A stretch of DNA of 10,385 nucleotides from Opitutales bacterium (GTDB taxonomy: Bacteria; Verrucomicrobiota; Verrucomicrobiia; Opitutales; Coraliomargaritaceae): the NCBI GenBank assembly GCA_049598495.1, contig JBMYNR010000046.1, positions 1 through 10,385 on the forward strand. Reading direction: 5' to 3'. The notes under the pieces are model-generated. The model worked only from the letters and a program-made list of their open reading frames with translations. It was not told the origin of the DNA and searched no databases. Made by a program: the position numbers and the translations under genes. Positions 230 to 10,385 of this stretch are shown here, in pieces; the first letter of the stretch is position 1, and each line of letters starts with the position of its first letter.

Positions 230-865
230 CTAGAACCCCTTGACACTCACAGGTGCCCGCTCAAGGAGATCATTCATATTCATTTCGGCGAGCTTCCCAT
301 CGAATTCGGTATCCACGATCATCAAGGTATCACCACCGAGTCTCTTTGCACGCACGAGCCCATCATTACGGATCATATCCATTCCAAACGCGCTCTTCAT
401 TTCCCCAAGCTCCTCCTTGCTGGCTCGCTTCCAAAATGACCCACCCCCATGAAGGGCGAGAAGCTGGTTAAACTCAAAACCACTCATTCCCTGGCTGCGC
501 TTGTAGACTTCAGCAACGGAGACCCCGTCCACATAAAGCACATGCAGATCCCAGCCAGCTGAAATACGCCTAGAATCCAACTCTGAAGAGGTGGGGCGAC
601 GGCCGTCATCCGTCTTGAAGTAAATACGAACTGCAGAACCGCTGGGCAGATATTCCATATACTTCATATAAGGCATACCACGCCGGCGAGTTGCCTCAAT
701 GGTGTCGTCGCGGTAAACGATGCCCCCCGAGGCAAACAGTCGACTCTCAATCGTTTGACGGCGCTCTCCAATTCGGGCATCCGCCGACGAGCAAGCAAAT
801 AAACCCGCCATCACCACCGCGAGGACAACCAGGGACGGAACAAATTCTGTGGGGCATTTCATCAT
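230..865 (-). CDS. Hypothetical exported protein (signal peptide, about 211 aa)
   Basis: The ORF track start (1006) overlaps dgt, so ATG at 865 or 862 is more plausible. MMK is followed by hydrophobic SLVVLAVVMAGLFA and an AxA site (ADA|RIGE). No family recognised. Confidence 0.7.
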   Translation of the reverse strand: MMKCPTEFVPSLVVLAVVMAGLFACSSADARIGERRQTIESRLFASGGIVYRDDTIEATRRRGMPYMKYMEYLPSGSAVRIYFKTDDGRRPTSSELDSRRISAGWDLHVLYVDGVSVAEVYKRSQGMSGFEFNQLLALHGGGSFWKRASKEELGEMKSAFGMDMIRNDGLVRAKRLGGDTLMIVDTEFDGKLAEMNMNDLLERAPVSVKGF

Positions 866-919
866 TGAGCTTAGACAAGTAAACTCGCTCACTATTCGTG
901 ACAAAACAAATCCACACCG

Positions 920-2206
920 ATGCCGAACGATTTCTACGCCCCCTTCGACCTCGAACGTTTTCCTGAAACGACCCCACTTGAGGGCGAATACCGCAGCGCC
1001 TTTCAAATTGAGCGTGACAGGATTATCTTCTCCTACCCGTTTCGCAGGCTACAATCGAAGACACAGGTCTTTCAATCGGGCGAGTATGACTTCTACAGGA
1101 CGCGCCTGACGCACTCAATCGAGGTCGCAAAGGTGGGCCGCTCGATCTGCGAGTTCTTATTAGCAAGCTCCCCACTGCTACACGATAAGTTCTACATCGA
1201 CCCCGACCTGACCGAGGCCGTTTGCCTCGCGCACGATCTAGGCCATCCTCCCTTCGGGCACATCGGCGAGCGTAAACTCAATGAACTCATGAGTCCATAT
1301 GGAGGATTTGAAGGCAACGGACAAACCCTCCGCATCCTAACCGAACTCATCTACGAGCGACCGGGGCGCACCCAAGGAATCGCCCCGACCCGGGCCTTTC
1401 TGGATGGCGTCATGAAATACAAGGCAACTCACTCGGAGTGGGTCGCACAGACCTCCAAAACACCCAAGAATCATTTCATCTACAACGATCAAACAGAGTG
1501 GCGCGATCGTGTTTTCGGCGGCAGTGCCCGGCCGGTAGAGTTAAAGGAGGTTGCAGCGCTCAACGCGTTTAAGAGTATTGAATGTCAGATCATGGACTGG
1601 GCCGATGATACGGCCTATTCACTCCACGATATCGTCGACGGGATACATGCACGCTACATCAGCGTCGGCAGTCTAACCGAATGGGCCGCGCAGAAAACAC
1701 TCTCGACGGAGGCTTCGAAACTCGTCGAAACTCTATGCGATAAGATCAAGTCGAATAGCTATGAAGCCTACTTTGGCGCCAAAGTAGGGAGTTTCGTTCA
1801 CGCCTGCAGACTGCGGGAACGCAACGGCTTTCTCAGCGAGCGAACAAACCGGCATGCATTCGATCTAGAAATCGACCCCGATATACAAGCGGAGAGCGCA
1901 CTCTATAAAACCATCGCACTGGATCTGATTTTTAAATCCACCCAACTCCAGCAGATTGAATTCAAGGGCGGTTATATTCTTGAGCGCCTATTTGCAGCCT
2001 TAGTGGATCATTGCGTGGAACCGGGAAGTAAGGGATTAAACCTACTCCCCGGATCGGTGCAGGAGCTTCTTGCGCAAGAACTGGAAGCGAACGGACGCCA
2101 CAGGCGACTCTGCGATTATAGTGCAGGGCTTACCGACGCGCTCGCCGTTCGCACCTACAAGCGGCTATTCGACGCCGATTTCGGCTCCATTGCGGAATTG
2201 CTGTAA
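920..2206 (+). CDS. dgt: Deoxyguanosinetriphosphate triphosphohydrolase (dGTPase, HD superfamily)
   Basis: Motifs [53 protein letters not shown] and C-terminal DYSAGLTD. Confidence 0.95.
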
Positions 2207-2248: not shown

Positions 2249-2352
2249 AGTTAAGTGGTTGAGTAGAGCCGATATTCACACTTAACTATCACACCTCTTA
2301 ACTTTGCGCTATGCGCTCCACTCAACCACTCAACTCGGCGCGGAGCGCCGCC
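2249..2352. repeat. Intergenic inverted-repeat element made of 8-bp CACTYAAC units (repeat family 2)
   Basis: 2249-2269 AGTTAAGTGGTTGAGTAGAGC is the reverse complement of 2315-2335 GCTCCACTCAACCACTCAACT at 19/21 positions. Extra CACTTAACT and CTCTTAACT units lie inside. The element ends with hairpin CGGCGC-GGA-GCGCCG. Confidence 0.75.
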
Positions 2353-2354
2353 CC

Positions 2355-3479
2355 ATGAAATATAAGACTCAAACTCTTCAAGAGCTCAAAGAGAAGTCCC
2401 CCCTCGCTGGCTCAAAAAAGGCACTCGTCGGTATCGACGGCTTCGTCGATAAGATTGTTCATCCGGTCGATCAACGCTCCGGCCCGGGCGATCAGTTTCA
2501 GGCGATTCCGACGATCACTGATTTCGCCAACCGAATTGGATCCGCTGCCGGGAAGAGCGCCAATATTGAGCTTGCGCCCGTCGTTGAGAAACTCGGAGGC
2601 AACGGCCCAATTATGGCCAATGCACAATCCGCGCATGGCCTCCAAGTTCGCTACCTTGGCGCCCTCGGGCGTGACAGCATTCACCCCGTTTTTCATGATT
2701 TTGCTGAACGAACAAAGGCCATTTCAATCGCTGACCCAGGCGTGACGCTCGCCGCTGAATTCACCGATGGAAAAATTCTTCTCGGATCCATGGCCAGCCT
2801 CGACGAGATCACCTATGAGCGCATCTGCGAATTACTGGGGAAGGATGCGTTCATTTCGATCCTAGGCGAATCCGATCTTATCACGATGACGAACTGGACA
2901 ATGATCCCTTATCTGACTGATATCTTCCGGAGTCTGATTAGCGATGCCCTCCCCCGGTTACCAAAAAACAAAGACCGTACTTTCTTCTTCGATCTCGCTG
3001 ATCCCGAGAAACGCTCTGAAGCCGATCTTCTCGAGGTCCTGCATCTCTTCAAAGAGTTCGAATCCTTCGGAAAAGTCATCCTAGGACTGAACCTGCGTGA
3101 GGCTGAACAAGTCGACGCGTTACTCGGCTTTGAATCGCTGGCTAATACACCGGAGAATCTGCAAACCATGGCAGCGCGCATTCGCGAGACACTTCAACTC
3201 AACACCGTGGTGATCCATCCTGTAGCCGACTCCGCCTGCGCCACCCCGGAAGGCACCGCATACGTCGAAGGCCCCTTCTGTAAAAAGCCAAAAATCACAA
3301 CCGGAGCCGGTGATCACTTCAACTCTGGCTTCGTCACGGCCAGACTCCTCGGCCTCTCCCCTGAAGCAGCCCTCACCGTGGCCGTGGCCACCTCCGGCTA
3401 CTACGTACGCACCGCCGTCAGCCCAAGCCTTAACGACCTCAGCGAATTTATCGAAACAGGCGGAGCCCTTGTCGAGTAG
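2355..3479 (+). CDS. PfkB/ribokinase-family carbohydrate kinase
   Basis: N-terminal LGGNGPIMANA and C-terminal TTGAGDHFNSGF ribokinase-family signatures. ATG 2355 is preferred over TTG 2304, which lies inside the repeat element. Confidence 0.85.
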   Translation: MKYKTQTLQELKEKSPLAGSKKALVGIDGFVDKIVHPVDQRSGPGDQFQAIPTITDFANRIGSAAGKSANIELAPVVEKLGGNGPIMANAQSAHGLQVRYLGALGRDSIHPVFHDFAERTKAISIADPGVTLAAEFTDGKILLGSMASLDEITYERICELLGKDAFISILGESDLITMTNWTMIPYLTDIFRSLISDALPRLPKNKDRTFFFDLADPEKRSEADLLEVLHLFKEFESFGKVILGLNLREAEQVDALLGFESLANTPENLQTMAARIRETLQLNTVVIHPVADSACATPEGTAYVEGPFCKKPKITTGAGDHFNSGFVTARLLGLSPEAALTVAVATSGYYVRTAVSPSLNDLSEFIETGGALVE

Positions 3480-3495
3480 GTTGTCGCAAGGCCTC

Positions 3496-3538
3496 CTCCA
3501 CCCAACGACCCAATCACTCAACCCGGCGTAAGGCCGCC
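3496..3538 (+). repeat. Second copy of the repeat family 2 right arm
   Basis: CTCCACCCAACGACCCAATCACTCAACCCGGCGTAAGGCCGCC aligns with 2316-2352 CTCCACTCAACCACTCAACTCGGCGCGGAGCGCCGCC, with one extra 8-bp unit. Confidence 0.65.
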
Positions 3539-3562
3539 ACCTCTCGACCACAGCCCACACCC

Positions 3563-3633
3563 AACCGCTCATCACCACTTATCACACGCTTATTATTTCA
3601 CCCATCCAACAAAATTAGCGGTCATTAGCGGTC
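3563..3633 (+). repeat. 10-bp-unit inverted element, copy A (repeat family 1)
   Basis: AACCGCTCAT CACCACTTAT CACACGCTTAT, a 20-bp spacer, then ATTAGCGGTC ATTAGCGGTC. Confidence 0.9.
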
Positions 3634-3662
3634 TAAAACAGACACACAAGCCACATTCAAAA

Positions 3663-4304
3663 ATGCCCGGTTTATTCATCACATTCGAAGGCGGCGAAGG
3701 TTGCGGCAAGTCGACCCAAATCGCGGCTCTTAAAGCGAAGCTTGAAGCCGAGGGTCACGAAGTTATTCAAACCCGTGAGCCCGGGGGCACCTCTCTTGGA
3801 GAAGCCATTCGTCACCTCCTACAGCATGACGAATCAGGCCACGGCATGTCAGCCGAAACGGAACTGTTGCTCTTCGCCGCCAGCCGTGCCCAACACGTGC
3901 GCGAACGGATTGCGCCATCCATTGCTGATGGCAAGGTTGTGCTCTGCGATCGATTCATGGATTCAACCACCGTTTATCAGGGCGTCGCCCGCGCGATCCA
4001 TCCGGACCGAGTCGAGGCCATCAACCAGTTCGCAGTCGGCCAGGCAACTCCCGATCTGACCATCCTGATCGACCTCCCGCCGGAAGTTGGCCTCGCCCGC
4101 GTCCACGCCCGCAGTGAAGGACAACTCGACCGTATGGAACAGGAAGCCATCGAGTTTTTCGAAGCCGTCCGAAAAGGCTATCTGGATTTAGCGGCTGAAG
4201 AACCCGAACGCTTTGTCACTCTCGACGGAAGTAAAAGCATTGAAGAACTTGAGGTGTTAATCTGGGACACCGTAAAAGCGAAAATTCAGTCACCTAAAAT
4301 ATAA
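3663..4304 (+). CDS. tmk: Thymidylate kinase
   Basis: FITFEGGEGCGKSTQ P-loop, TREPGGT, ELLLFAASRAQH, VLCDRFMDSTTVYQG and PDLTILIDL. Confidence 0.97.
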   Translation: MPGLFITFEGGEGCGKSTQIAALKAKLEAEGHEVIQTREPGGTSLGEAIRHLLQHDESGHGMSAETELLLFAASRAQHVRERIAPSIADGKVVLCDRFMDSTTVYQGVARAIHPDRVEAINQFAVGQATPDLTILIDLPPEVGLARVHARSEGQLDRMEQEAIEFFEAVRKGYLDLAAEEPERFVTLDGSKSIEELEVLIWDTVKAKIQSPKI

Positions 4305-4310
4305 GGCTAG

Positions 4311-4392
4311 AACCGCTCATCACCACTTATAACACGCTTATCATTTACAACCATCCTACAACATTAGCGGTAATCAGCAGTAATTAGCGGTA
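4311..4392 (+). repeat. 10-bp-unit inverted element, copy B
   Basis: AACCGCTCAT CACCACTTAT AACACGCTTAT, a 21-bp spacer, then ATTAGCGGTA ATCAGCAGTA ATTAGCGGTA. Confidence 0.9.
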
Positions 4393-4441
4393 TAAAAAAG
4401 ATTCACTAAAAGTCTGATTATTAGTAAACTATCCTAATGGC

Positions 4442-4849
4442 ATGAAGGAACCATCCAGCAGTGAATATTTAAGCAAAGAGGGCTACGAACTGATGGCTGC
4501 GGCCTTTGAGGTACATGCCGAACTGAATGGTGGTCTAGCAGAAGAAATCTACCAAGAGAGCCTACAGTGGGAACTACACTTGCGTGTGATTTCCTACACA
4601 AGTAGGGAACAGCTGAACGTTTTCTACAAAGGACATCAGCTAAACAAAAAATACATTCCGGACTTACTTGTCTTTGACGAGATAGTAACAGAACTAAAGG
4701 CAGTCAAAGAACTGCTGCCCGAACACGAGCAACAGTTGATCAACTATATGCGCATCACAAAAAAAGCAGTGGGTTATCTAATTAATTTTGGTCCGATGAA
4801 ACGGCTTCAATGGAAGCGCTATATCATAAAAGAATTTATTCCTAAATAG
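4442..4849 (+). CDS. GxxExxY protein (PD-(D/E)XK nuclease-like, PDDEXK_3 family)
   Basis: AAFEVHAELNGGLAEEIYQESL contains the GxxExxY motif. PDLLV...ELKAV is the nuclease-type core, and QLINYM...GYLINFG is the family C-terminus. The gene is more AT-rich than its neighbours. Confidence 0.92.
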   Translation: MKEPSSSEYLSKEGYELMAAAFEVHAELNGGLAEEIYQESLQWELHLRVISYTSREQLNVFYKGHQLNKKYIPDLLVFDEIVTELKAVKELLPEHEQQLINYMRITKKAVGYLINFGPMKRLQWKRYIIKEFIPK

Positions 4850-4903
4850 CTACATATCATTAGCAGTTCAGAGGTCTGACACATACATACTGATAATTTT
4901 CAA

Positions 4904-5028
4904 AACCGCTAATCACCACTTATCACACGCTTATAATTTTTTCTCATTCAGCAACATTTACGATAATCTCAGAATAAATTCCATAATTGCTACAGATTAT
5001 TAGCGGTCATCAGCGGTGATGAGCGGTC
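4904..5028 (+). repeat. 10-bp-unit inverted element, copy C (long spacer)
   Basis: AACCGCTAAT CACCACTTAT CACACGCTTAT, a 64-bp spacer, then ATTAGCGGTC ATCAGCGGTG ATGAGCGGTC. The first 21 bp of the spacer resemble the A and B spacers and are followed by what may be decayed right-arm units (ATTTACGATA...). Confidence 0.9.
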
Positions 5029-5054
5029 AGACTCATGCATGCGAAAACAACCAA

Positions 5055-5126
5055 GCCCGCCAATTACCACTTATCAAACGCTTATCATTGTTGCTCATTC
5101 AACAACATCGCCGTGATGATCAGTTC
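5055..5126 (+). repeat. 10-bp-unit inverted element, copy D (degenerate)
   Basis: GCCCGCCAAT TACCACTTAT CAAACGCTTAT, spacer CATTGTTGCTCATTCAACAAC, then a decayed right arm ATCGCCGTGATGATCAGTTC. Confidence 0.75.
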
Positions 5127-5132
5127 AAATCT

Positions 5133-6278
5133 ATGAAATACGAATTCAACAAGTGCCCCGACAGAACGGGCTGCGGTAGCCTAAAATGGGATAAGTACAA
5201 AGGACGCGACATTCTGCCACTCTGGGTCGCGGACATGGACTTCCTCACTGCCCCGGAAATCCTCGACGCGCTTCAGCGGCGCCTCGACCACGGCGTCTTT
5301 GGCTACACCATACCTCATGAAGCCCCGATCGAAGCGGTGATCAACTACCTCGCTCGCCAGCATGGCTACAGCGCAAAGGCAAGCTGGCTGAACTTCCTCC
5401 CCGGACTCGTCCCCGCAATCAACCTCTGCTGCCACGCTTTTCTAAAGCCCGAGGAGTCGGCCATCACGATGACCCCGGTCTATCCGCCCTTTCTCAGCGC
5501 ACCTGATTATGCCGGACGTGAGCTAATCAAAGTCCCACTCTGCCTGAACGCTTCAGATCAATGGACGCTCGATATCGATGCCATGGAAGCGGCAGTGAGG
5601 CCAAATACCCGCATGCTCATTCTTTGCAGTCCACACAACCCCGTCGGACGCGTCTTTAATAAAGAAGAACTCAGCGCACTGGCTGATTTCTGCGAGCGGC
5701 ACGACCTGATCATCATCTCCGACGAGATCCACTGTGACCTCGTCTTCGATGCTGAGGCGAAGCACACCGTCACCGCTACCCTCAGCGGGAAAATCGCTGA
5801 CCGCACCGTCACCCTCATGGCGCCCAGCAAGACCTACAACTTACCCGGTCTCGCCTGTGCCTTTTCCGTCATAGAAAATCCCATGCTACGCGCCCGCTTC
5901 CGCGAAACGATTCGCGGGATCATCACCGAGGTCAACTGCTTCGGCTACGCCGGAATCACCGCCGCCTACAACCATGGTGAACCCTGGCGCCAAGCTCTGC
6001 TCACCTATCTGCGTGGCAACTACGAGTTGGTCTACGACTTCATGAAAACGGAACTACCCGAGATCACCTTCCGCCCGATGCAGTCGACCTACCTAGCCTG
6101 GTTCGACGTCAGTCAGCTCGAATTAAAAGACCCCGTCGGACATTTCGAAAAACACGGGGTCGGCCTCTCCGACGGCACGCCCTTTGACGGTCCGCAACAC
6201 CTGCGCCTAAACTTCGGCTGCCCGCGCACGCGGCTCGAAGAAGGGCTGGAGAAGATGAAAGTGGCGGTCCACACATAA
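5133..6278 (+). CDS. MalY/PatB-family PLP-dependent C-S lyase/aminotransferase
   Basis: SLKW, LPLWVADMDF, HGVFGY, LCSPHNPVGRV, ISDEIHCDL, APSKTYNLPGL (PLP lysine) and LRLNFGCP. ATG 5133 is preferred because the ORF-track extension from 5016 runs through repeats C and D. Confidence 0.93.
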   Translation: MKYEFNKCPDRTGCGSLKWDKYKGRDILPLWVADMDFLTAPEILDALQRRLDHGVFGYTIPHEAPIEAVINYLARQHGYSAKASWLNFLPGLVPAINLCCHAFLKPEESAITMTPVYPPFLSAPDYAGRELIKVPLCLNASDQWTLDIDAMEAAVRPNTRMLILCSPHNPVGRVFNKEELSALADFCERHDLIIISDEIHCDLVFDAEAKHTVTATLSGKIADRTVTLMAPSKTYNLPGLACAFSVIENPMLRARFRETIRGIITEVNCFGYAGITAAYNHGEPWRQALLTYLRGNYELVYDFMKTELPEITFRPMQSTYLAWFDVSQLELKDPVGHFEKHGVGLSDGTPFDGPQHLRLNFGCPRTRLEEGLEKMKVAVHT

Positions 6279-6383
6279 AACCGACTGCGTCGGAAACCGC
6301 TAATCACACGCTAATTTAATCCACAGCGTCGAATCGGCCATTGCCGATTCTCATAAGCGGTTATTAGCGGTCAAAAAATGGAT
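6271..6383 (+). repeat. 113-bp duplicated intergenic block containing element copy E (6295-6372)
   Basis: Matches 8243-8365 with 5 substitutions and one 10-bp indel. It contains hairpins CCGAC-TGC-GTCGG and GAATCGGC-CATT-GCCGATTC, the malY stop region and the ATGGAT start of the next gene. Confidence 0.93.
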
Positions 6384-6758
6384 CATATAAGATTAGACCG
6401 CTGGCTCTGGGCGGTGCGAGTGTATAAAACCCGCAGCGATGCCACCGATGCCTGCCGCGGCTCCGCAGTGCGGCTCAATGGCGGGATCGCCAAGCCCTCG
6501 GCCAAAGTACGTGTGGGTGATACCGTTGTTGCCCGCACCAAAGCACTCACGCGCACCTTACAAGTCAAAGCCCTCACGGATAAGCGAATCGGCGCCCCGC
6601 TCGTTGCCGAATACCTCGACGACCAAACCCCAGAATCCGAATACGAAAAAGCCCGCGAAAAGCGGGCCCATGCCAAAGTGTTTACCCATAAAGGCGGCGG
6701 GCGACCAACCAAGAAAGATCGCCGTGACATTGAAAAACTAATCGGATCGGAGACATGA
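6378..6758 (+). CDS. hslR: Ribosome-associated heat shock protein Hsp15 (S4 RNA-binding domain)
   Basis: IRLDRWLWAVRVYKTRSDA, AKPSAKVRVGD and C-terminal GRPTKKDRRDI. Confidence 0.93.
   Translation: MDHIRLDRWLWAVRVYKTRSDATDACRGSAVRLNGGIAKPSAKVRVGDTVVARTKALTRTLQVKALTDKRIGAPLVAEYLDDQTPESEYEKAREKRAHAKVFTHKGGGRPTKKDRRDIEKLIGSET
6721..6752 (+). repeat. 32-bp direct repeat, left copy (3' end of hslR)
   Basis: GCCGTGACATTGAAAAACTAATCGGATCGGAG; 31/32 identical to 8131-8162. Confidence 0.92.
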
Positions 6759-6843
6759 ACCCCCAAGGCAGGACAGTAAAATAGCCGCGTGATTTTTGGA
6801 TGCTATAGCAGCTATCACCCATCAATCAATCTCTCGCCTAACT

Positions 6844-8007
6844 TTAAGAATGATTTGAAAATGAGTTTCCGCCTGCCAGTTCTACCGCTTCTGCGAGAAA
6901 AGACAGTCCAGTTTCAATGTAAGCTCTTTTCTTATTTAAATACGGCTGCTCGCTATCCGTGCTTACCAAAATCAAGCGTGCATTTGGATAGGAAGACTGA
7001 AAGGCGGAAAAATGATTCTCTTGGCCGGACTTAAGCTTCCACTTGCATTCGATCGCAAGCGGTGCCTCTCCTCGTCGAGCGAGCACAAAGTCTATCTCTC
7101 GTTTGCGTTTATCCCGCCAATAAAATAAGTGCTCCGGCTCAAAATGAGCACGCAACTCGTCCAATACCAAATGCTCCCAAAGTCCCCCATAATCTTCATG
7201 CCGCAAGTCCCGCCACCCCCGCGCATGACAAACAAATCCCGTATCAAATCCATACACTTTCGGCATCGATACAATTTCCTTTTGCGGGTTCTTGAAAAAT
7301 GGACGCAATACATGGACGGCCCCCGTTGCTTCCAACACACCAAGATAGTTTGATAGCGTCTGTCGACTGGCACCACAAACCGAAGTTAAGCTGCTGAGTT
7401 CACATAACTGCCCACTCTGTGTCAGCAGGAGCTCTAAAAGCCGCATGAACGCGGTGCGCTTCTCCAAGCGAAATAACTCCTGAATATCCCTCGCCCAGAA
7501 AGCATCCATCCATTCCACAAAATCTTTTTCCGGAAACCCCTCTGAAATAAGATTCTCGGGCAAGCCTCCATGGTACATCCGAGTCTTCAAATCAGCTCCA
7601 AACACTTCCAATTCACTGAACAATACGGGAGCCAGGTGCAGCTGCCTTTTTCGTCCTGAAAGTGTGTCGCGAAATCGTCGACTCGCTCCGAGCGTCGAAG
7701 ATCCCGTCGCCAAAACTCGCAAATTCGGGAAATGATCCGCAGCTATTTTTAGAAGTTCAGACGGCTGTGCAACCCGATGCACTTCATCTAGGATCAAACG
7801 ATTGTTTCCCGCCTGCTCTAGAAAGCCCTCAGGGTCCTCTTCAATCAGTCTGCGCACGCGCGGCAACTCACAGTCAAAATAAACCACATCTTGCAAACTG
7901 CGAGTCAAAGTCGTCTTCCCCACCCGACGCACACCCGTCAACCACAGCACCGGACGTTCCCGCCAAGCCTGCTCCACTCGACTTTGCCAATAAACTCTAT
8001 TTACCAT
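6844..8007 (-). CDS. AAA_14-family ATPase with C-terminal DUF4143 (PD-(D/E)XK-like) domain
   Basis: Walker A GVRRVGKT, Walker B LILDEVH, ATGSS, L.GR, GGLP, PKVYGFDTGF, LWEHLV and YWRD...EIDFV...AIECK. ATG 8007 (MVNR) is preferred over TTG 8067. Confidence 0.9.
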   Translation of the reverse strand: MVNRVYWQSRVEQAWRERPVLWLTGVRRVGKTTLTRSLQDVVYFDCELPRVRRLIEEDPEGFLEQAGNNRLILDEVHRVAQPSELLKIAADHFPNLRVLATGSSTLGASRRFRDTLSGRKRQLHLAPVLFSELEVFGADLKTRMYHGGLPENLISEGFPEKDFVEWMDAFWARDIQELFRLEKRTAFMRLLELLLTQSGQLCELSSLTSVCGASRQTLSNYLGVLEATGAVHVLRPFFKNPQKEIVSMPKVYGFDTGFVCHARGWRDLRHEDYGGLWEHLVLDELRAHFEPEHLFYWRDKRKREIDFVLARRGEAPLAIECKWKLKSGQENHFSAFQSSYPNARLILVSTDSEQPYLNKKRAYIETGLSFLAEAVELAGGNSFSNHS

Positions 8008-8130
8008 ATGCAAACAGAAATAACTTTTAGATATACCAAATGCAAATCTAATTTCATGTAATTCCAAGCACTAACTGTAGATGATGATTCGCCATCCAGA
8101 AATAATTTAAGCCTACTTGGAGTGCGCACA

Positions 8131-8165
8131 GCCGCGACATTGAAAAACTAATCGGATCGGAGTGA
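8131..8165 (+). repeat. 32-bp direct repeat, right copy: orphan hslR 3' end with its own stop codon
   Basis: GCCGCGACATTGAAAAACTAATCGGATCGGAG followed by TGA reads RDIEKLIGSE*, whereas hslR ends RDIEKLIGSET*. Confidence 0.9.
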
Positions 8166-8171
8166 AGCCGA

Positions 8172-8191
8172 GACCGCTCATCACCACTAAT
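8172..8191 (+). repeat. 10-bp-unit element, copy F (left arm only)
   Basis: GACCGCTCAT CACCACTAAT, located 6 bp after the orphan hslR stop codon. Confidence 0.8.
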
Positions 8192-8242
8192 GAAAATCCT
8201 CATGCGAGCATAGCGACAAGACCAGACCATTGAGGATTCAAT

Positions 8243-8365
8243 ACACATAAAACCGACTGCGTCGGGAACCGCTCATCACCACTAATCACACGCTAATCTA
8301 ATCCACAGCATCGAATCGGCCATTGCCGATTCTCATAAGCGGTACTTAGCGGTCAAAAAATGGAT
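8243..8365 (+). repeat. 123-bp duplicated intergenic block containing element copy G (8267-8354)
   Basis: Direct repeat of 6271-6383 with one additional 10-bp unit. Confidence 0.93.
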
Positions 8366-8989
8366 TCCTCTCTGCAACAAATTGATTACGAAGCTTCCTG
8401 CCCTGAATTACCAGAGCCGTTTAAATCTTTAGTCGTGCACGCCGACGAACTGTGGAACCAATTCTGGGCGCAAAAGCTGAACAAACGTTATCCTCGTTAT
8501 ATTGCCAGCGAGCCGGCACAGGTGTATGCCGTGCTTAAACACGTGCGCGATGAGGACCTCGCCTATGGCGATCGTTTCATCGAATGGGGCAGCGGATTCG
8601 GGCTGGCTAGCAGTATGGCTTCCATGCTCGGCTTTGAAGCCACCGGCATCGAACTCGAAGAAGGCCTCGTGAAGATTGCGGAAAAACTCGCCGAAGCCCA
8701 CCAAACGGGTGCTGATTTTATTCACACCAGCTACATCCCTGAAGGTTACATTAGCTACGACCACATCGGCGGCAGCGACATCGTCCCCGACGACAGTTTT
8801 GGCCACCAAGCCGGACCACCCAAATATGAAGGGATGGAGATCGGCTTGGACGAGGTCGATGTCTTCTTCGTCTACCCCTGGCCCGGCGAACAGGAAATGA
8901 TGCTTAAGCTCTTTCAATCCGTCGCCAGCGAAGACGCCCTACTCATCGCCTACCTCGGTGACCGGGAGATCTGTCTGTATCGGCGTTAA
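8360..8989 (+). CDS. Class I SAM-dependent methyltransferase-like protein
   Basis: Motif I-like FIEWGSGFG, acidic beta-2 ATGIELE, and DVFFVYPWPG at the beta-4 position. Substrate unknown. Confidence 0.75.
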   Translation: MDSSLQQIDYEASCPELPEPFKSLVVHADELWNQFWAQKLNKRYPRYIASEPAQVYAVLKHVRDEDLAYGDRFIEWGSGFGLASSMASMLGFEATGIELEEGLVKIAEKLAEAHQTGADFIHTSYIPEGYISYDHIGGSDIVPDDSFGHQAGPPKYEGMEIGLDEVDVFFVYPWPGEQEMMLKLFQSVASEDALLIAYLGDREICLYRR

Positions 8990-9058
8990 ACGCCGAGTTG
9001 ACTGGCTTGCGGGCCTGCGAAATCTCGTGTGCTGTGCTTTAGGTTCGTTATGATTATT

Positions 9059-9106
9059 GCCAGACGGGAGTCTGGCGTTCCCGGGATCGCCAGACTCCCG
9101 TCTGGC
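9059..9106. repeat. 48-bp near-perfect palindrome (two REP-like units back to back)
   Basis: GCCAGACGGGAGTCTGGCGTTCCC|GGGATCGCCAGACTCCCGTCTGGC has one mismatched pair. Each half is itself a hairpin, GCCAGA-N6-TCTGGC. Confidence 0.85.
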
Positions 9107-9126
9107 TAAACACTCAAGCGCTCAGC

Positions 9127-9148
9127 TTGGAGTTCCTCCTTTAGGCCG
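9127..9148 (+). repeat. REP-like unit with TTGGAG head, decayed copy of 87-108
   Basis: TTGGAGTTCCTCCTTTAGGCCG, 20/22 identical to 87-108. Confidence 0.6.
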
Positions 9149-9153
9149 CCTTA

Positions 9154-9230
9154 TCCCTACCCGTTCATAAGCGGTTCCCGCACAGTCGGCCCGGCGCTGC
9201 AGACAACGAAGGCGACACAGACTCACTCTA
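9154..9230 (+). repeat. Direct repeat of at least 77 bp, left of the toxin-antitoxin pair
   Basis: Matches 10308-10385 (window end) with 3 substitutions and a 1-bp indel. Confidence 0.92.
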
Positions 9231-9384
9231 TGCCGCCTTCGAAAAGTATTTAGCTAACACGGAATTACTCAACCAACACAGCCAAAAGGCCCGGATAATG
9301 GCGGAGGCTCTGTTTGATCGAGAAACCACCTACTCCCAATTAGCAGAGTTCATACTCGCAAGTGAGAACAGAAGTCAGAATTAG
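9193..9384 (+). pseudogene. Startless C-terminal fragment resembling a GT-B/GT4 glycosyltransferase
   Basis: Manual translation gives GAADNEGDTDSLYAAFEKYLANTELLNQHSQKARIMAEALFDRETTYSQLAEFILASENRSQN*. There is an in-frame TAG at 9142-9144 and no ATG/GTG/TTG before 9298. The pattern GD..SL..A...L.....L......AR..AE..FDR...Y resembles the GT4 C-terminal helices. Confidence 0.65.
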
Positions 9385-9429
9385 GATCAGCGAGCATAGT
9401 CCTTCCTACCTATGATCACTGCCGAGCCC

Positions 9430-9876
9430 TCAAAGCAATTGATCAATATAATTATCCACCCGTACACACGTCTGCTCCAATGCTGGAATCACTCGCTGGC
9501 AGTAGACAAATAAATCGGGTAGTTGCAGCCCTGCATAGTCGTGCGCAATGCGGTTTCGAACATCCTTCAATTCACGCAACCAATCCACCCCCGGAATTAA
9601 CCCACGAGCCTCCGCACGATTGGCCGTATCCAACAAAGTCCCTGGCTCAATCAGCTCATACCGGTCAATCGCCCGCAAGACACGATTGATCAACAAATCG
9701 ACCACACGCGCAAATCGACTGGTAAACGCCTCCACTTTTTCCAATTCAAGCTCGGACCATTTCCCCGCGCCCGCAACAGAGGAAACCGATTCAATCGAAA
9801 AACTCAAATGCTTCCGCGCATCCAGCAACTCCTGCCGCGCAGACTGTAAAACTGCTGCATATACCGAATCACTCAT
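9430..9876 (-). CDS. HEPN-domain RNase toxin (nucleotidyltransferase substrate-binding family)
   Basis: RNRIAHDY matches the HEPN R-X4-H motif. The protein looks all-helical, and the gene has a 4-bp overlap with the upstream MNT gene. Confidence 0.85.
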   Translation of the reverse strand: MSDSVYAAVLQSARQELLDARKHLSFSIESVSSVAGAGKWSELELEKVEAFTSRFARVVDLLINRVLRAIDRYELIEPGTLLDTANRAEARGLIPGVDWLRELKDVRNRIAHDYAGLQLPDLFVYCQRVIPALEQTCVRVDNYIDQLL

Positions 9877-10160
9877 AGCCGTTCACCTGTCTCCATTGCA
9901 ACCCGAGCAATCGCACTCAGGCCAACACGTTCATTTTCGATGATCAAATCGAGCTTCTGCCAACCAATACGATCCAAGATTTCGCGCCGTATCGGCCAAA
10001 GGTCATCAAAACCAAGCCGATCTGAAAGCACCAACAGATCAATATCGCCCCCACGCGCCTGATCATCCACACGAGAGCCAAACAAGAGAACCCGTGCATC
10101 AGGATCAGCCTTATGGATCGAGTCACGAATTACTTTTTGTTCCTGTTGGGTCAGTCTCAT
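9873..10160 (-). CDS. Minimal nucleotidyltransferase (MNT) antitoxin
   Basis: 95 aa with LFGSRVDDQARGGDIDLLV (GS-X10-DXD) and the third Asp in KLDLII. Confidence 0.9.
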   Translation of the reverse strand: MRLTQQEQKVIRDSIHKADPDARVLLFGSRVDDQARGGDIDLLVLSDRLGFDDLWPIRREILDRIGWQKLDLIIENERVGLSAIARVAMETGERL

Positions 10161-10285
10161 AATTAGGGTATACGATCAACGAACCGCCTCAAAAAAGCAA
10201 GACGCTTACATCCATGCAGGACAGAGCAAGTGGGACGAAGCGCGAGTCGCTTGATGTGAATCATCGGAACCATGTCCTCGGCAAC

Positions 10286-10315
10286 GGATCGGCCCCTTGG
10301 CGATCCTTCCCTACC
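10286..10315 (-). repeat. REP-like palindrome with GTAG head
   Basis: The - strand reads GGTAGGGAAGGATCGCCAAGGGGCCGATCC, with hairpin GGATCG-N9-CGATCC. Confidence 0.55.
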
Positions 10316-10385
10316 CGTTCATAAGCGGTTCCCGCACAGTCGGCCCGGGCGCTGAATACACCGAAGGCGACACAGACTCACTCTA
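10308..10385 (+). repeat. Direct repeat right of the toxin-antitoxin pair (runs off the window end)
   Basis: Copy of 9154-9230; 10348-10385 reads GAEYTEGDTDSL. Confidence 0.92.

Follow-up and report, generated by a model that had tools for sequence, protein, structure and literature searches.

The window analysed here is a whole contig (C46, 10,385 nucleotides (nt)) of the Opitutales bacterium assembly G000 (1.75 Mb, 73 contigs, 95% complete, GC 0.54), in which small accessory genes lie between and behind housekeeping genes: a GxxExxY gene, a gene for an AAA_14 ATPase with a DUF4143 domain, and a two-gene module formed by a nucleotidyltransferase (MNT) and a HEPN ribonuclease. The last two are each bounded by direct copies of the end of a neighbouring gene, the footprint of long target duplication, and the GxxExxY gene stands between hairpin-forming spacer elements. 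The explanation that we prefer, and hold as a whole to be probable with ample room for doubt, is that two unrelated kinds of small selfish DNA colonised the window: hairpin spacer elements together with the GxxExxY gene, which would be a cassette of the hairpin-associated small-gene type, and modules that carry long target duplications. The ground they colonised would be a conserved housekeeping block (dGTPase-Khk-tmk-malY-hslR-orf209) ending at a variable sugar-polymer locus. A preliminary description of the same DNA had listed three modules delimited by direct repeats, and its repeats (113/123, 32 and at least 77 nt, and the hairpins around the GxxExxY gene) are all found where it placed them, with gene 3' ends duplicated for malY, hslR and a glycosyltransferase gene, GT1. 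Its proposal of a single recurring mechanism is not supported, because the 113/123-nt repeat and the hairpins beside the GxxExxY gene (its elements B and C) are spacer elements that flank core genes too. In the following, G numbers denote related genomes, L numbers other loci with related modules, X numbers public sequencing runs and C numbers contigs of G000. At least half of the sampled words of the window are present in 20 of 24 listed public runs, which are seawater or marine metagenomes from 17 studies.

Gene order in relatives separates the core of the window from its accessory part. The MalY protein was searched across 40 related genomes, and up to 20 kb around the orthologue was fetched from 14 of them; MalY identity is 68–84% among the 19 best relatives, and the related genomes are approximately 75–84% identical at protein level. 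The backbone dGTPase-Khk-tmk-malY-hslR-orf209 is conserved and tight across the 14 related loci, tmk being found in nine of them and adjoining malY in eight, and hslR following malY directly in 11. The gaps are short in relatives: approximately 6 nt between Khk and tmk; 20–104 nt between tmk and malY in seven of the eight relatives with both genes, against 828 nt in the window; 13–31 nt between malY and hslR in nine of 11, against 99 nt in the window, G011 and G004 being the exceptions (83 and 175 nt, two loci); and 1–14 nt between hslR and orf209 in five of six, against 1601 nt in the window. In G011 the hslR|orf209 gap measures 166 nt and holds an ACCGCT-type hairpin element, and the tmk|malY gap measures 599 nt and is filled by other cargo, a four-helix-bundle gene (TIGR02436, the '23S rRNA IVS protein' family) within inverted arms of CCACTCAAC units. 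No match to GxxExxY, AAA_14, HEPN or MNT was found in any of the 14 related loci, and the GxxExxY gene is not at the tmk|malY junction in any of the eight relatives with tmk beside malY. The preliminary description had suggested a synteny check for modules that vary among relatives and for alternative cargo at the same junctions, and on both points it was right: the modules are absent from 14 of 14 related loci, and the tmk|malY junction of G011 holds the four-helix-bundle gene. Because the backbone is conserved in these 14 relatives, the GxxExxY, AAA_14 and MNT-HEPN modules are, by this comparison, accessory insertions, and one junction (tmk|malY) accepts different cargo. By the same token hslR is core and not cargo, since it is part of the backbone of the relatives.

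The AAA_14/DUF4143 gene (6844–8007, minus strand; Pfam) lies in an insert of 1378 nt (6753–8130) that contains this gene and an AT-rich upstream region only. On its left the insert is bounded by repeat B1 (6721–6752, plus strand), the 3' end of hslR and the left copy of the target duplication, and on its right by repeat B2 (8131–8162), which together with its TGA (8131–8165, plus strand) forms the original hslR end and is followed by an ancestral downstream hairpin arm. The two copies comprise the last codons of hslR and are identical at 31 of 32 nt; hslR to the left of the insert ends in GSET*, and the second copy, to the right, in GSE*. In five of the six relatives with both genes (approximately 75–80% identical, compared at protein level) the C-terminus of hslR is single-copy and stands directly against orf209. 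The protein has a PD-(D/E)XK-like motif, EIDF...ECK, as read from the sequence, and matches the PADLOC profiles of the defence candidate PDC-S01 (E 4e-59 and 8e-59), so that the gene can be regarded as a candidate defence gene. Its relatives, up to 80% identical, occur in metagenome-assembled genomes (MAGs) labelled as other phyla, and DNA homology among AAA_14 loci hardly exceeds the gene itself. The layout was compared with contigs, not reads, from four of the 24 listed runs. A single contig of X2, from another study, spans 6332–8328 with both 32-nt copies and zero differences, which answers the concern of the preliminary description that the duplications might be assembly artefacts; run contigs agree with the layout of the window in general, and break only at shared 30-mers.

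The MNT-HEPN module occupies an insert of approximately 920 nt (9386–10307) with the module genes only. The HEPN gene (9430–9876, minus strand; PF01934, 26.6 bits, cut-off 23.5) encodes a HepT-like RNase toxin with the Rx4-6H motif as RNRIAH, and overlaps by 4 nt an MntA-like nucleotidyltransferase antitoxin gene (9873–10160, minus strand; PF01909 of Pfam, 24.9 bits, cut-off 21; NCBIfam) with the GSx10DxD motif as GSRVDDQARGGDID. The NCBIfam MntA equivalog score is 24, below its cut-off of 60. By domain order and motifs the pair is predicted to form a type VII-like MntA/HepT toxin-antitoxin (TA) system, and its HEPN protein is the only HepT-like match in G000. The repeats around it are copies of the tail of GT1: repeat C1 (9154–9230, plus strand) on the left and repeat C2 (10308–10385, plus strand) on the right, the latter running to the last base of the contig; they are 77 and 78 nt long and differ by one indel and four mismatches. 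Repeat C1 belongs to a GT1 3' remnant (9154–9385, plus strand, stop codon 9383–9385) that is frameshifted relative to the right tail copy (10251–10385, plus strand), which is cut by the contig end. What the preliminary description had called a glycosyltransferase-like fragment is present and is more exactly a true GT1 remnant: the last approximately 54 codons remain in the left copy, and the GT1 body is not in the 95%-complete assembly. In relatives two glycosyltransferase genes follow orf209, and the bodies of both are missing from the G000 assembly; the deletion edge of GT1 adjoins a partial copy of a dispersed repeat (9127–9157). At protein level the GT435 tail is single-copy in L021 and L023.

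Other loci extend this picture beyond the end of the contig. The nine closest metagenome MNT-HEPN loci (77–85% DNA identity) match the window only in the two-gene unit; in five of them the match runs from 9428/9430 to 10160/10162, and in the other four it is shifted by a few bases, extends 47 nt past the MNT start or is truncated where a contig stops. In L148, GT1 is intact and is followed by HEPN, MNT and a 131-nt copy of the glycosyltransferase tail (93%) with its own stop codon. L148 thus shows the architecture of the window in a lineage whose glycosyltransferase tail no longer aligns with that of the window, and its order probably indicates what lies past the contig end. In both L147 and L148 the two tail copies lie within one contig, with the layout continuing to the second stop codon, and in X16 a contig runs from repeat C2 into the glycosyltransferase tail (joint 10357-to-9257). 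A contig of X11 and X16 represents another haplotype without repeat C1, in which 108 other letters replace the glycosyltransferase tail and the last approximately 15 HEPN codons (9159–9476).

Insertion with duplicated local sequence recurs in censuses of both families, as the preliminary description had supposed. Frames and repeats at the other loci were obtained with custom scripts. Flanking direct repeats are present at 11 of 78 AAA_14-related loci with usable flanks, compared with four of 111 shifted controls from the same loci, and repeats of at least 50 nt at seven of 78 compared with none of 111 (longest control 23 nt). The AAA_14 repeats inspected closely are ends of neighbouring genes: in L072, 107 nt of a DegT-type 5' end; in L139, 145 nt of a neighbouring 3' end; and in L134, 171 nt of a neighbouring 5' end with its upstream region. 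The two further AAA_14 paralogues in G000 (28–30% identical) have no flanking repeats. The pattern is more frequent around MNT-HEPN. Among related loci in which an MNT gene adjoins and 120 nt of flank or more is available, repeats are found at 24 of 58 and in one of 38 controls; those of at least 38 nt, which reach 270 nt, at 19 of 58 and in none of 38. Grouped by flank similarity, repeats occur in 10 of 27 contexts, and in eight of 27 at the length of at least 38 nt. By blast these repeats form several groups without similarity to one another; coding 3' ends account for some of them (in L201, 270 nt of an AraC-type tail) and spacers of short tandem units for others. The distance between repeats is 867–1415 nt for a module of 730 nt. 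A terminal sequence conserved between MNT-HEPN modules from different repeat groups was looked for and not found.

The MNT-HEPN module is more conserved than its host operon (84% versus 66–72%), and a 995-nt MNT-HEPN unit, 99% identical and with sharp ends, is found in two contexts of one community. Among 82 flanking proteins from 23 MNT-HEPN loci there is no integrase and no DDE transposase, only one Y1-like protein and one fragment of a group II intron maturase. Glycosyltransferase or sugar-nucleotide genes stand beside the module in 11 of the 23 loci, and AAA_14-DUF4143 genes adjoin it in L163 and L152, as in the window. In L183, compared with L166 (also L182), modules that are 84% identical occupy different spacers of one glycan operon type (GT1-DUF268-GT11-GT2), the genes of which are 66–79% identical. 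The 995-nt unit, composed of operator-like palindromes, the two genes and a terminal hairpin, lies at 3521–4515 in L201, 1591–2586 in L197 and 1–981 in L189, and in L197 the 7-nt sequence CGAGCCG stands on both sides of it.

Footprints of this type have precedents. Insertion with long target duplication of restriction-modification (RM) units was reportedly described by Nobusato et al. in 2000. In the available part of a later study (Furuta, Abe and Kobayashi 2010; PMC2853133), RM units are inserted with long, variable direct target duplications and no other mobile element, and the repeats frequently extend into the 3' end of an adjacent gene, one 46-bp repeat overlapping 15 bp of the 3' end of HI0105. 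The criteria in that part of the study are repeats longer than 30 bp, an insert shorter than 20 kb and an aligned empty site. It leaves the mechanism open, suggests DNA breakage by the cargo, and proposes a life cycle in which units insert, are amplified by way of their repeats and are set free again. The available part of a 2014 review (PMC3874152) ascribes long target duplication to RM systems only. The AAA_14 and MNT-HEPN inserts resemble these cases in that they lie between direct repeats longer than 30 bp (32 nt, and 77/78 nt cut by the contig end), in that the target end is single-copy at the empty site of relatives (at protein level), and in that the inserts, of 1378 and approximately 920 nt, contain no mobile-element gene. 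They differ in cargo, which is MntA/HepT and AAA_14-DUF4143 instead of RM. Judged from sequence, the two inserts agree with the published description on every criterion except cargo type. As the class is already in print for RM systems, the finding extends a known kind and does not establish a new one; in the literature searched, no claim of long target duplication was found for toxin-antitoxin or HEPN modules. The minimal mobile elements of Neisseria are a further point of comparison, in that whole genes of varied type lie between the same conserved genes, without mobility genes, and are exchanged by homologous recombination in the flanks. The Neisseria model is said to predict clean replacement without duplicated gene ends, whereas the target is duplicated in the window.

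The second kind of DNA in the window is a family of hairpin spacer elements, E1–E5, all on the plus strand, which fill five successive spacers. E1 (3563–3632; fold z −3.8) is an empty ACCGCT/AGCGGT hairpin in the Khk|tmk spacer; E2 (4311–4391; z −3.5) and E3 (4904–5027; z −5.1), the latter with three right-arm units, are the elements B and C of the preliminary description; E4 lies at 6296–6371 and E5 at 8268–8353. The left arm consists of ACCGCTnAT-like 10-nt units and the right arm of inverted ATnAGCGGT units, the centre is variable, and the space from the right arm to the next ATG is taken up by an A-rich leader. Each of the five folds into a long, imperfect hairpin (z −3.5 to −5.1). E3b (5055–5119, plus strand; z −0.2) is a degenerate copy of the left arm (65%) that is no longer a hairpin. 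E1 and E2, which share 90% identity across 61 nt, stand on either side of tmk, E3 and E4 on either side of malY, and E4 and E5 on either side of hslR with the AAA_14 gene. Because they flank core genes in this way, delimitation by direct repeats is not specific to cargo where these elements are concerned. In G000 a loose double-arm pattern has 32 matches, seven of them within this 10-kb contig, and further copies of the ACCGCT family are found on contigs C32, C19, C6, C2, C33 and C1. An empty element of a second arm family, an inverted pair of arms of CCACTCAAC units, lies between the dGTPase-like gene and Khk (2249–2335); arms of this unit type also enclose the four-helix-bundle gene in G011. 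In run X16, 16 extra letters (CTCAACCACTCAACCG) at position 2328 represent a change in unit number in this type of arm. A scan of the window against Rfam (E up to 0.1) gave no match, and a scan for sigma-70 promoters and terminators gave counts within those of shuffled sequence; no promoter is claimed for the arms.

Several observations concern the wider behaviour of these elements. Between C32:10481–10563 and window 6279–6371 the centre is inverted, with the arms and the upstream mini-hairpin in the same orientation, as if the arms recombine. At seven loci of G000 (C6:56788, C32:10560, C15:5442, C47:73, C47:2883, C3:76961 and C9:40808; L227–L231) the right arm is followed by ATAAAAATACGGCC, and at six of these a conserved stretch of approximately 100 nt (containing TAAGCTCCTTTGCCCCATGTCCCC) comes next, in some with a terminator-like hairpin end. 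A small RNA or a leader sequence is a possible reading of this stretch; the one Rfam match obtained with five loci that carry the conserved unit after the right arm is at chance level. Repeats of the REPIN/RAYT and miniature inverted-repeat transposable element (MITE) type are similar in being short intergenic elements with inverted arms and many related copies, in a genome that has Y1-like genes, and different in that the elements of the window cluster in five successive spacers. Neither a target-site duplication nor a link of the Y1-like genes to the ACCGCT arms was seen. Four Y1-transposase-like genes with an IS200-like domain, some of them long or fused, are found at C12:8429–8689, C24:9074–9322, C2:37212–37394 and C57:5252–5422, and their flanks carry GTAGGG-type palindromes, not ACCGCT arms.

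The 113/123-nt repeat is explained by the same elements. Repeat A1 (6271–6383, plus strand) runs from the final 8 nt of malY through a small hairpin and E4 to CAAAAA with ATGGAT, the start of hslR; repeat A2 (8243–8365, plus strand) is a copy of it, including the 8 nt of the malY end, now before orf209. The copies are 113 and 123 nt long and approximately 95% identical, the longer one having one additional 10-nt arm unit. The malY gene of the window ends in HT* and that of the relatives in HP*; as the malY ending is native, E5 was presumably copied from the malY|hslR spacer with a sliver of its flank. To judge from these features, A2 arose by local copying of the malY|hslR spacer element and replaced the right part of an older element of the 155-nt hairpin family before orf209. 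The left part of the older element survives as a partial copy at 8173–8242 (plus strand), with family matches on contigs C19, C6, C2 and C33. G011 has the same hairpin arm type immediately after the hslR stop codon, so 8131–8242 would be the ancestral hslR end with its downstream DNA. The preliminary description had taken hslR and the AAA gene together as one module between the 113/123-nt repeats; the layout is real, the module is not, because hslR is core. An insertion scar around the two genes is accordingly rejected in favour of a local copy of a spacer element.

The GxxExxY gene (4442–4849, plus strand; Pfam E 4e-36), also known as PDDEXK_3, encodes a small nuclease-fold protein of TIGR04256 (126 bits, cut-off 35; E 7e-37) and has a GC content of approximately 0.36–0.42, compared with 0.54 for the genome. 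It is located between E2 and E3, the outer arms lying at 4311–4341 and 4999–5027 and the inner arms at 4363–4391 and 4904–4934; by blast, its flanks share a 36-nt direct and a 13-nt inverted match. G000 has approximately ten GxxExxY loci, six of them intact, and approximately nine four-helix-bundle loci, nearly all in tight gaps between housekeeping genes and bracketed by locus-specific inverted arms of short tandem units. With conservative blast settings, inverted flank matches of at least 15 nt were found at seven of 16 such loci and at none of 80 random segments of G000; the locus of the window is among the nine without such a match, and further imperfect arms are visible by eye at several loci. 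Hairpin-bounded GxxExxY and four-helix-bundle cassettes have been likened to the ORF-bearing intervening sequences of 23S rRNA. The gene of the window resembles these cassettes in being a low-GC TIGR04256 gene in a tight operon spacer, associated with inverted arms of short tandem units, that is absent in relatives, and differs in lying between two full direct hairpins with arms of 10-nt units. No paper was found on the mobility of GxxExxY genes or on this hairpin-bounded design.

The GxxExxY insertion appears polymorphic in the population, a hint drawn from one depth figure per contig and from an X11/X16 contig whose left flank lies outside the view. The depth of the GxxExxY contig is 40 compared with 75 for both neighbours in X2, and 9.7 compared with 37 in X3. 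The X11 and X16 contig shows one left arm, 31 other letters and the right arm of E3 (4999 onward), followed by malY; areas without contig cover in these two runs, such as 4512–4858, were not counted as absence, and only this single-element contig was used. In L069, a contig labelled Balneolia, a GxxExxY gene 72% identical to that of the window (427–840) lies between two polysaccharide genes that are adjacent in G011, approximately 2 kb from an AAA_14 gene 80% identical to that of the window (2768–3919); the Balneolia label may be a binning error.

For the AAA_14 and MNT-HEPN modules, both regarded as self-contained addiction or defence units, insertion by the host's own recombination is most likely. 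Each module would have entered just behind a gene end, that of hslR or GT1, such that a terminal stretch of the gene, 32 nt for hslR and no less than 77 nt for GT1, now stands on both sides of the insert and the target gene stays intact. The module would travel with a copy of the end of its target gene and be integrated either by a single crossover of a circular form or by way of two junctions, the one homologous and the other illegitimate; the two repeats could recombine with each other and release it again, and no recombinase of its own would be needed. Four features argue for this: the repeats vary in length and are target-derived; differences between the copies favour third codon positions; X16 shows what may be a recombination tract; and the X2 version of repeat C1 carries some of the states of repeat C2. 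Four coding repeats show 41 differences between their copies, 25 of which are at third codon positions, and 24 of the codon changes are synonymous against 13 that are not; this count leaves out the repeat of L188, to which no reading frame could be assigned; this bias suggests two alleles that each evolved under selection. The X16 contig is 99.8% identical to window 6634–8329, its hslR diverging upstream of 6627, and looks like a recombination tract carrying the module.

A number of observations weigh against the preferred explanation. The third-position share of 61% is only weakly above a rough expectation of approximately 45% for one constrained and one free copy. The repeats of the window are themselves uninformative on origin, the 32-nt pair having one difference and all four differences of the glycosyltransferase pair changing an amino acid. 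Only 14% of AAA_14 loci have flanking repeats, and related loci in the flank censuses are not independent of one another. The AAA_14 insert is at full depth in four of the four runs compared, in which no same-species empty site was seen, and neither a circle, an empty-site read nor a recombination junction was seen directly in the contigs from four of 24 runs. Lastly, the GxxExxY gene of the window is atypical, standing between two complete hairpins in direct orientation and not within one stem.

An alternative that we consider unlikely, and yet deserving of attention, is de novo long target duplication, in which repair of a break or a stalled fork, at structured DNA behind a gene, would copy in a foreign module and then copy 30–270 nt of the target a second time, by template switching or by filling in long staggered ends. 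Repeats that vary in length and derive from the target are as this would produce, the insertion points lie beside hairpins, REP-like palindromes or terminators, and it is the reading favoured for RM units in the available part of PMC2853133, where double-strand breakage is proposed as the common property. However, HepT is an RNase-type toxin that cannot supply DNA breaks, and yet its modules show the pattern most often. Moreover, the copies differ by 2–14% with a synonymous bias, which fits two alleles better than a fresh copy, if weakly.

The integron-like outcome proposed in the preliminary description would require one site-specific system that recognises structured repeats and inserts single-gene cassettes, with its recombinase encoded elsewhere, and is improbable to a considerable degree. 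In outline, hairpins with inverted arms and a variable centre do resemble attC; the GxxExxY gene between two elements, set against the single element in X11/X16, is what recombination of a circle-borne with a chromosomal hairpin would give; and the inverted centre of the C32 copy relative to E4, with the orientation of the arms kept, suggests that arms recombine. Integron cassettes also share with the window single promoter-poor genes between structured imperfect palindromic repeats, and TA cargo is common in both. The window system differs in that IntI, attC core motifs and a shared site are all lacking. The ends of attC, RYYYAAC and GTTRRRY, served as the standard for the ACCGCT arms; the ends of the latter, read from the sequence, are AACCGCT... 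and ...AGCGGT, without the R''/R' motif. The repeats of AAA_14 and MNT-HEPN are local, neighbouring coding sequence, specific to each locus and 27–270 nt long with no common site, and the hairpin elements flank core genes as well. The preliminary description was correct that no integrase or transposase is on board, as no such domain was found in the 11 window proteins scanned. The search that it proposed for RAYT/Y1 transposases or tyrosine recombinases elsewhere gives four Y1-like genes and XerC/XerD, which could be counted in its favour; the former have other palindromes, and apart from XerD, which scores above cut-off, and a XerC-like protein G000 has no complete tyrosine recombinase. No protein of the 95%-complete assembly reaches the cut-off of 265 for the integron-integrase model TIGR02249, the highest scores being 146 and 114 bits, on XerD and the XerC-like protein. 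G000 also holds one rve transposase and two partial integrase matches.

Less probable still is the reading that larger integrative elements came in by way of an integrase at a gene 3' end and that the modules are what is left of them, the rest having decayed and the TA or defence gene having been kept between attL and attR by addiction or selection. A gene 3' end that is duplicated while the gene remains intact is the classic att footprint of integrative elements and counts for this reading, as do the two partial integrase matches. Against it stand the uniformly compact inserts, with the narrow repeat spacing given above; the lack of fragments of other genes in the inserts of the window and of any integrase among the 82 flanking proteins from 23 loci; and the sharp ends of the 995-nt unit in its two contexts. 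That the duplications are artefacts of mixed-population assembly, as a chimeric MAG contig or a graph loop, is scarcely credible: the contig does end inside repeat C2, and the population is polymorphic here, with the drop in depth at the GxxExxY gene, the 9159-to-9476 joint with 108 other letters (X11, X16) and the backward joint 10357-to-9257 (X16), but the independent X2 contig covers both 32-nt copies, the repeat copies differ from each other and so were not collapsed, and the independent assemblies of L147 and L148 hold both glycosyltransferase-tail copies in one contig. Three further joints (38-to-8173, 2351-to-3673 and 2349-to-5145) have short sides of 26–31 nt, probably belong to other loci or organisms, and were not used.

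The finding bears on an old open question, namely how TA and defence genes reach ordinary chromosomal sites without a visible mobile element. The footprint of long target duplication is common around one MntA/HepT family (24 of 58 loci; eight of 27 contexts) and present around one AAA_14-DUF4143 family (11 of 78), and its association with an RNase toxin argues against the published idea that DNA breaks made by the cargo are the driver. More tentatively, and with the odds against it, long target duplication might be a general recombinase-free route for small addiction and defence modules, RNA-targeting TA systems included. The gene-end copy would then serve as a portable and changing 'att'; modules would cycle by repeat-by-repeat excision and single-crossover re-entry through host recombination, and would settle in operon spacers and sugar-polymer loci beside hairpin DNA. 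As MNT-HEPN modules favour glycosyltransferase clusters, a module with a gene end on a circle offers a system in which recA dependence is testable. Repeat-flanked genes in such genomes need a control, given that hairpin spacer elements flank core genes equally often.

The remaining genes of the window were called and checked with Pfam, NCBIfam and PADLOC. An ORF without a name (230–1006, minus strand) is followed by the HD-domain dGTPase-like gene (920–2206) and the ketohexokinase gene Khk (2304–3479), both assigned by profile scans. The core genes behind them, all on the plus strand, are tmk, encoding thymidylate kinase (3663–4304; Pfam E 4e-53); malY, encoding a C-S lyase of the PatB/MalY type (5133–6278; TIGR04350, 442 bits, cut-off 340); hslR, encoding an Hsp15-like S4 protein (6378–6758; Pfam S4); and orf209 (8360–8989), which has no family match and contains a SAM-binding-like GxGxG stretch. 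Behind orf209, a near-perfect REP-like palindrome of 48 nt (9059–9106; z −9.2) has related copies at C2:34103 and on contig C3. The dispersed repeat at the edge of the GT1 deletion, approximately 90 nt long, has a fuller copy at 45–145 of the window, and over 20 contigs of G000 carry matches to it, dozens in all; it is often followed by a conserved CACGACGTAGCGAACTTGCGCCAGCAAGG-like stretch, and its summed depth is very high in all four runs compared.

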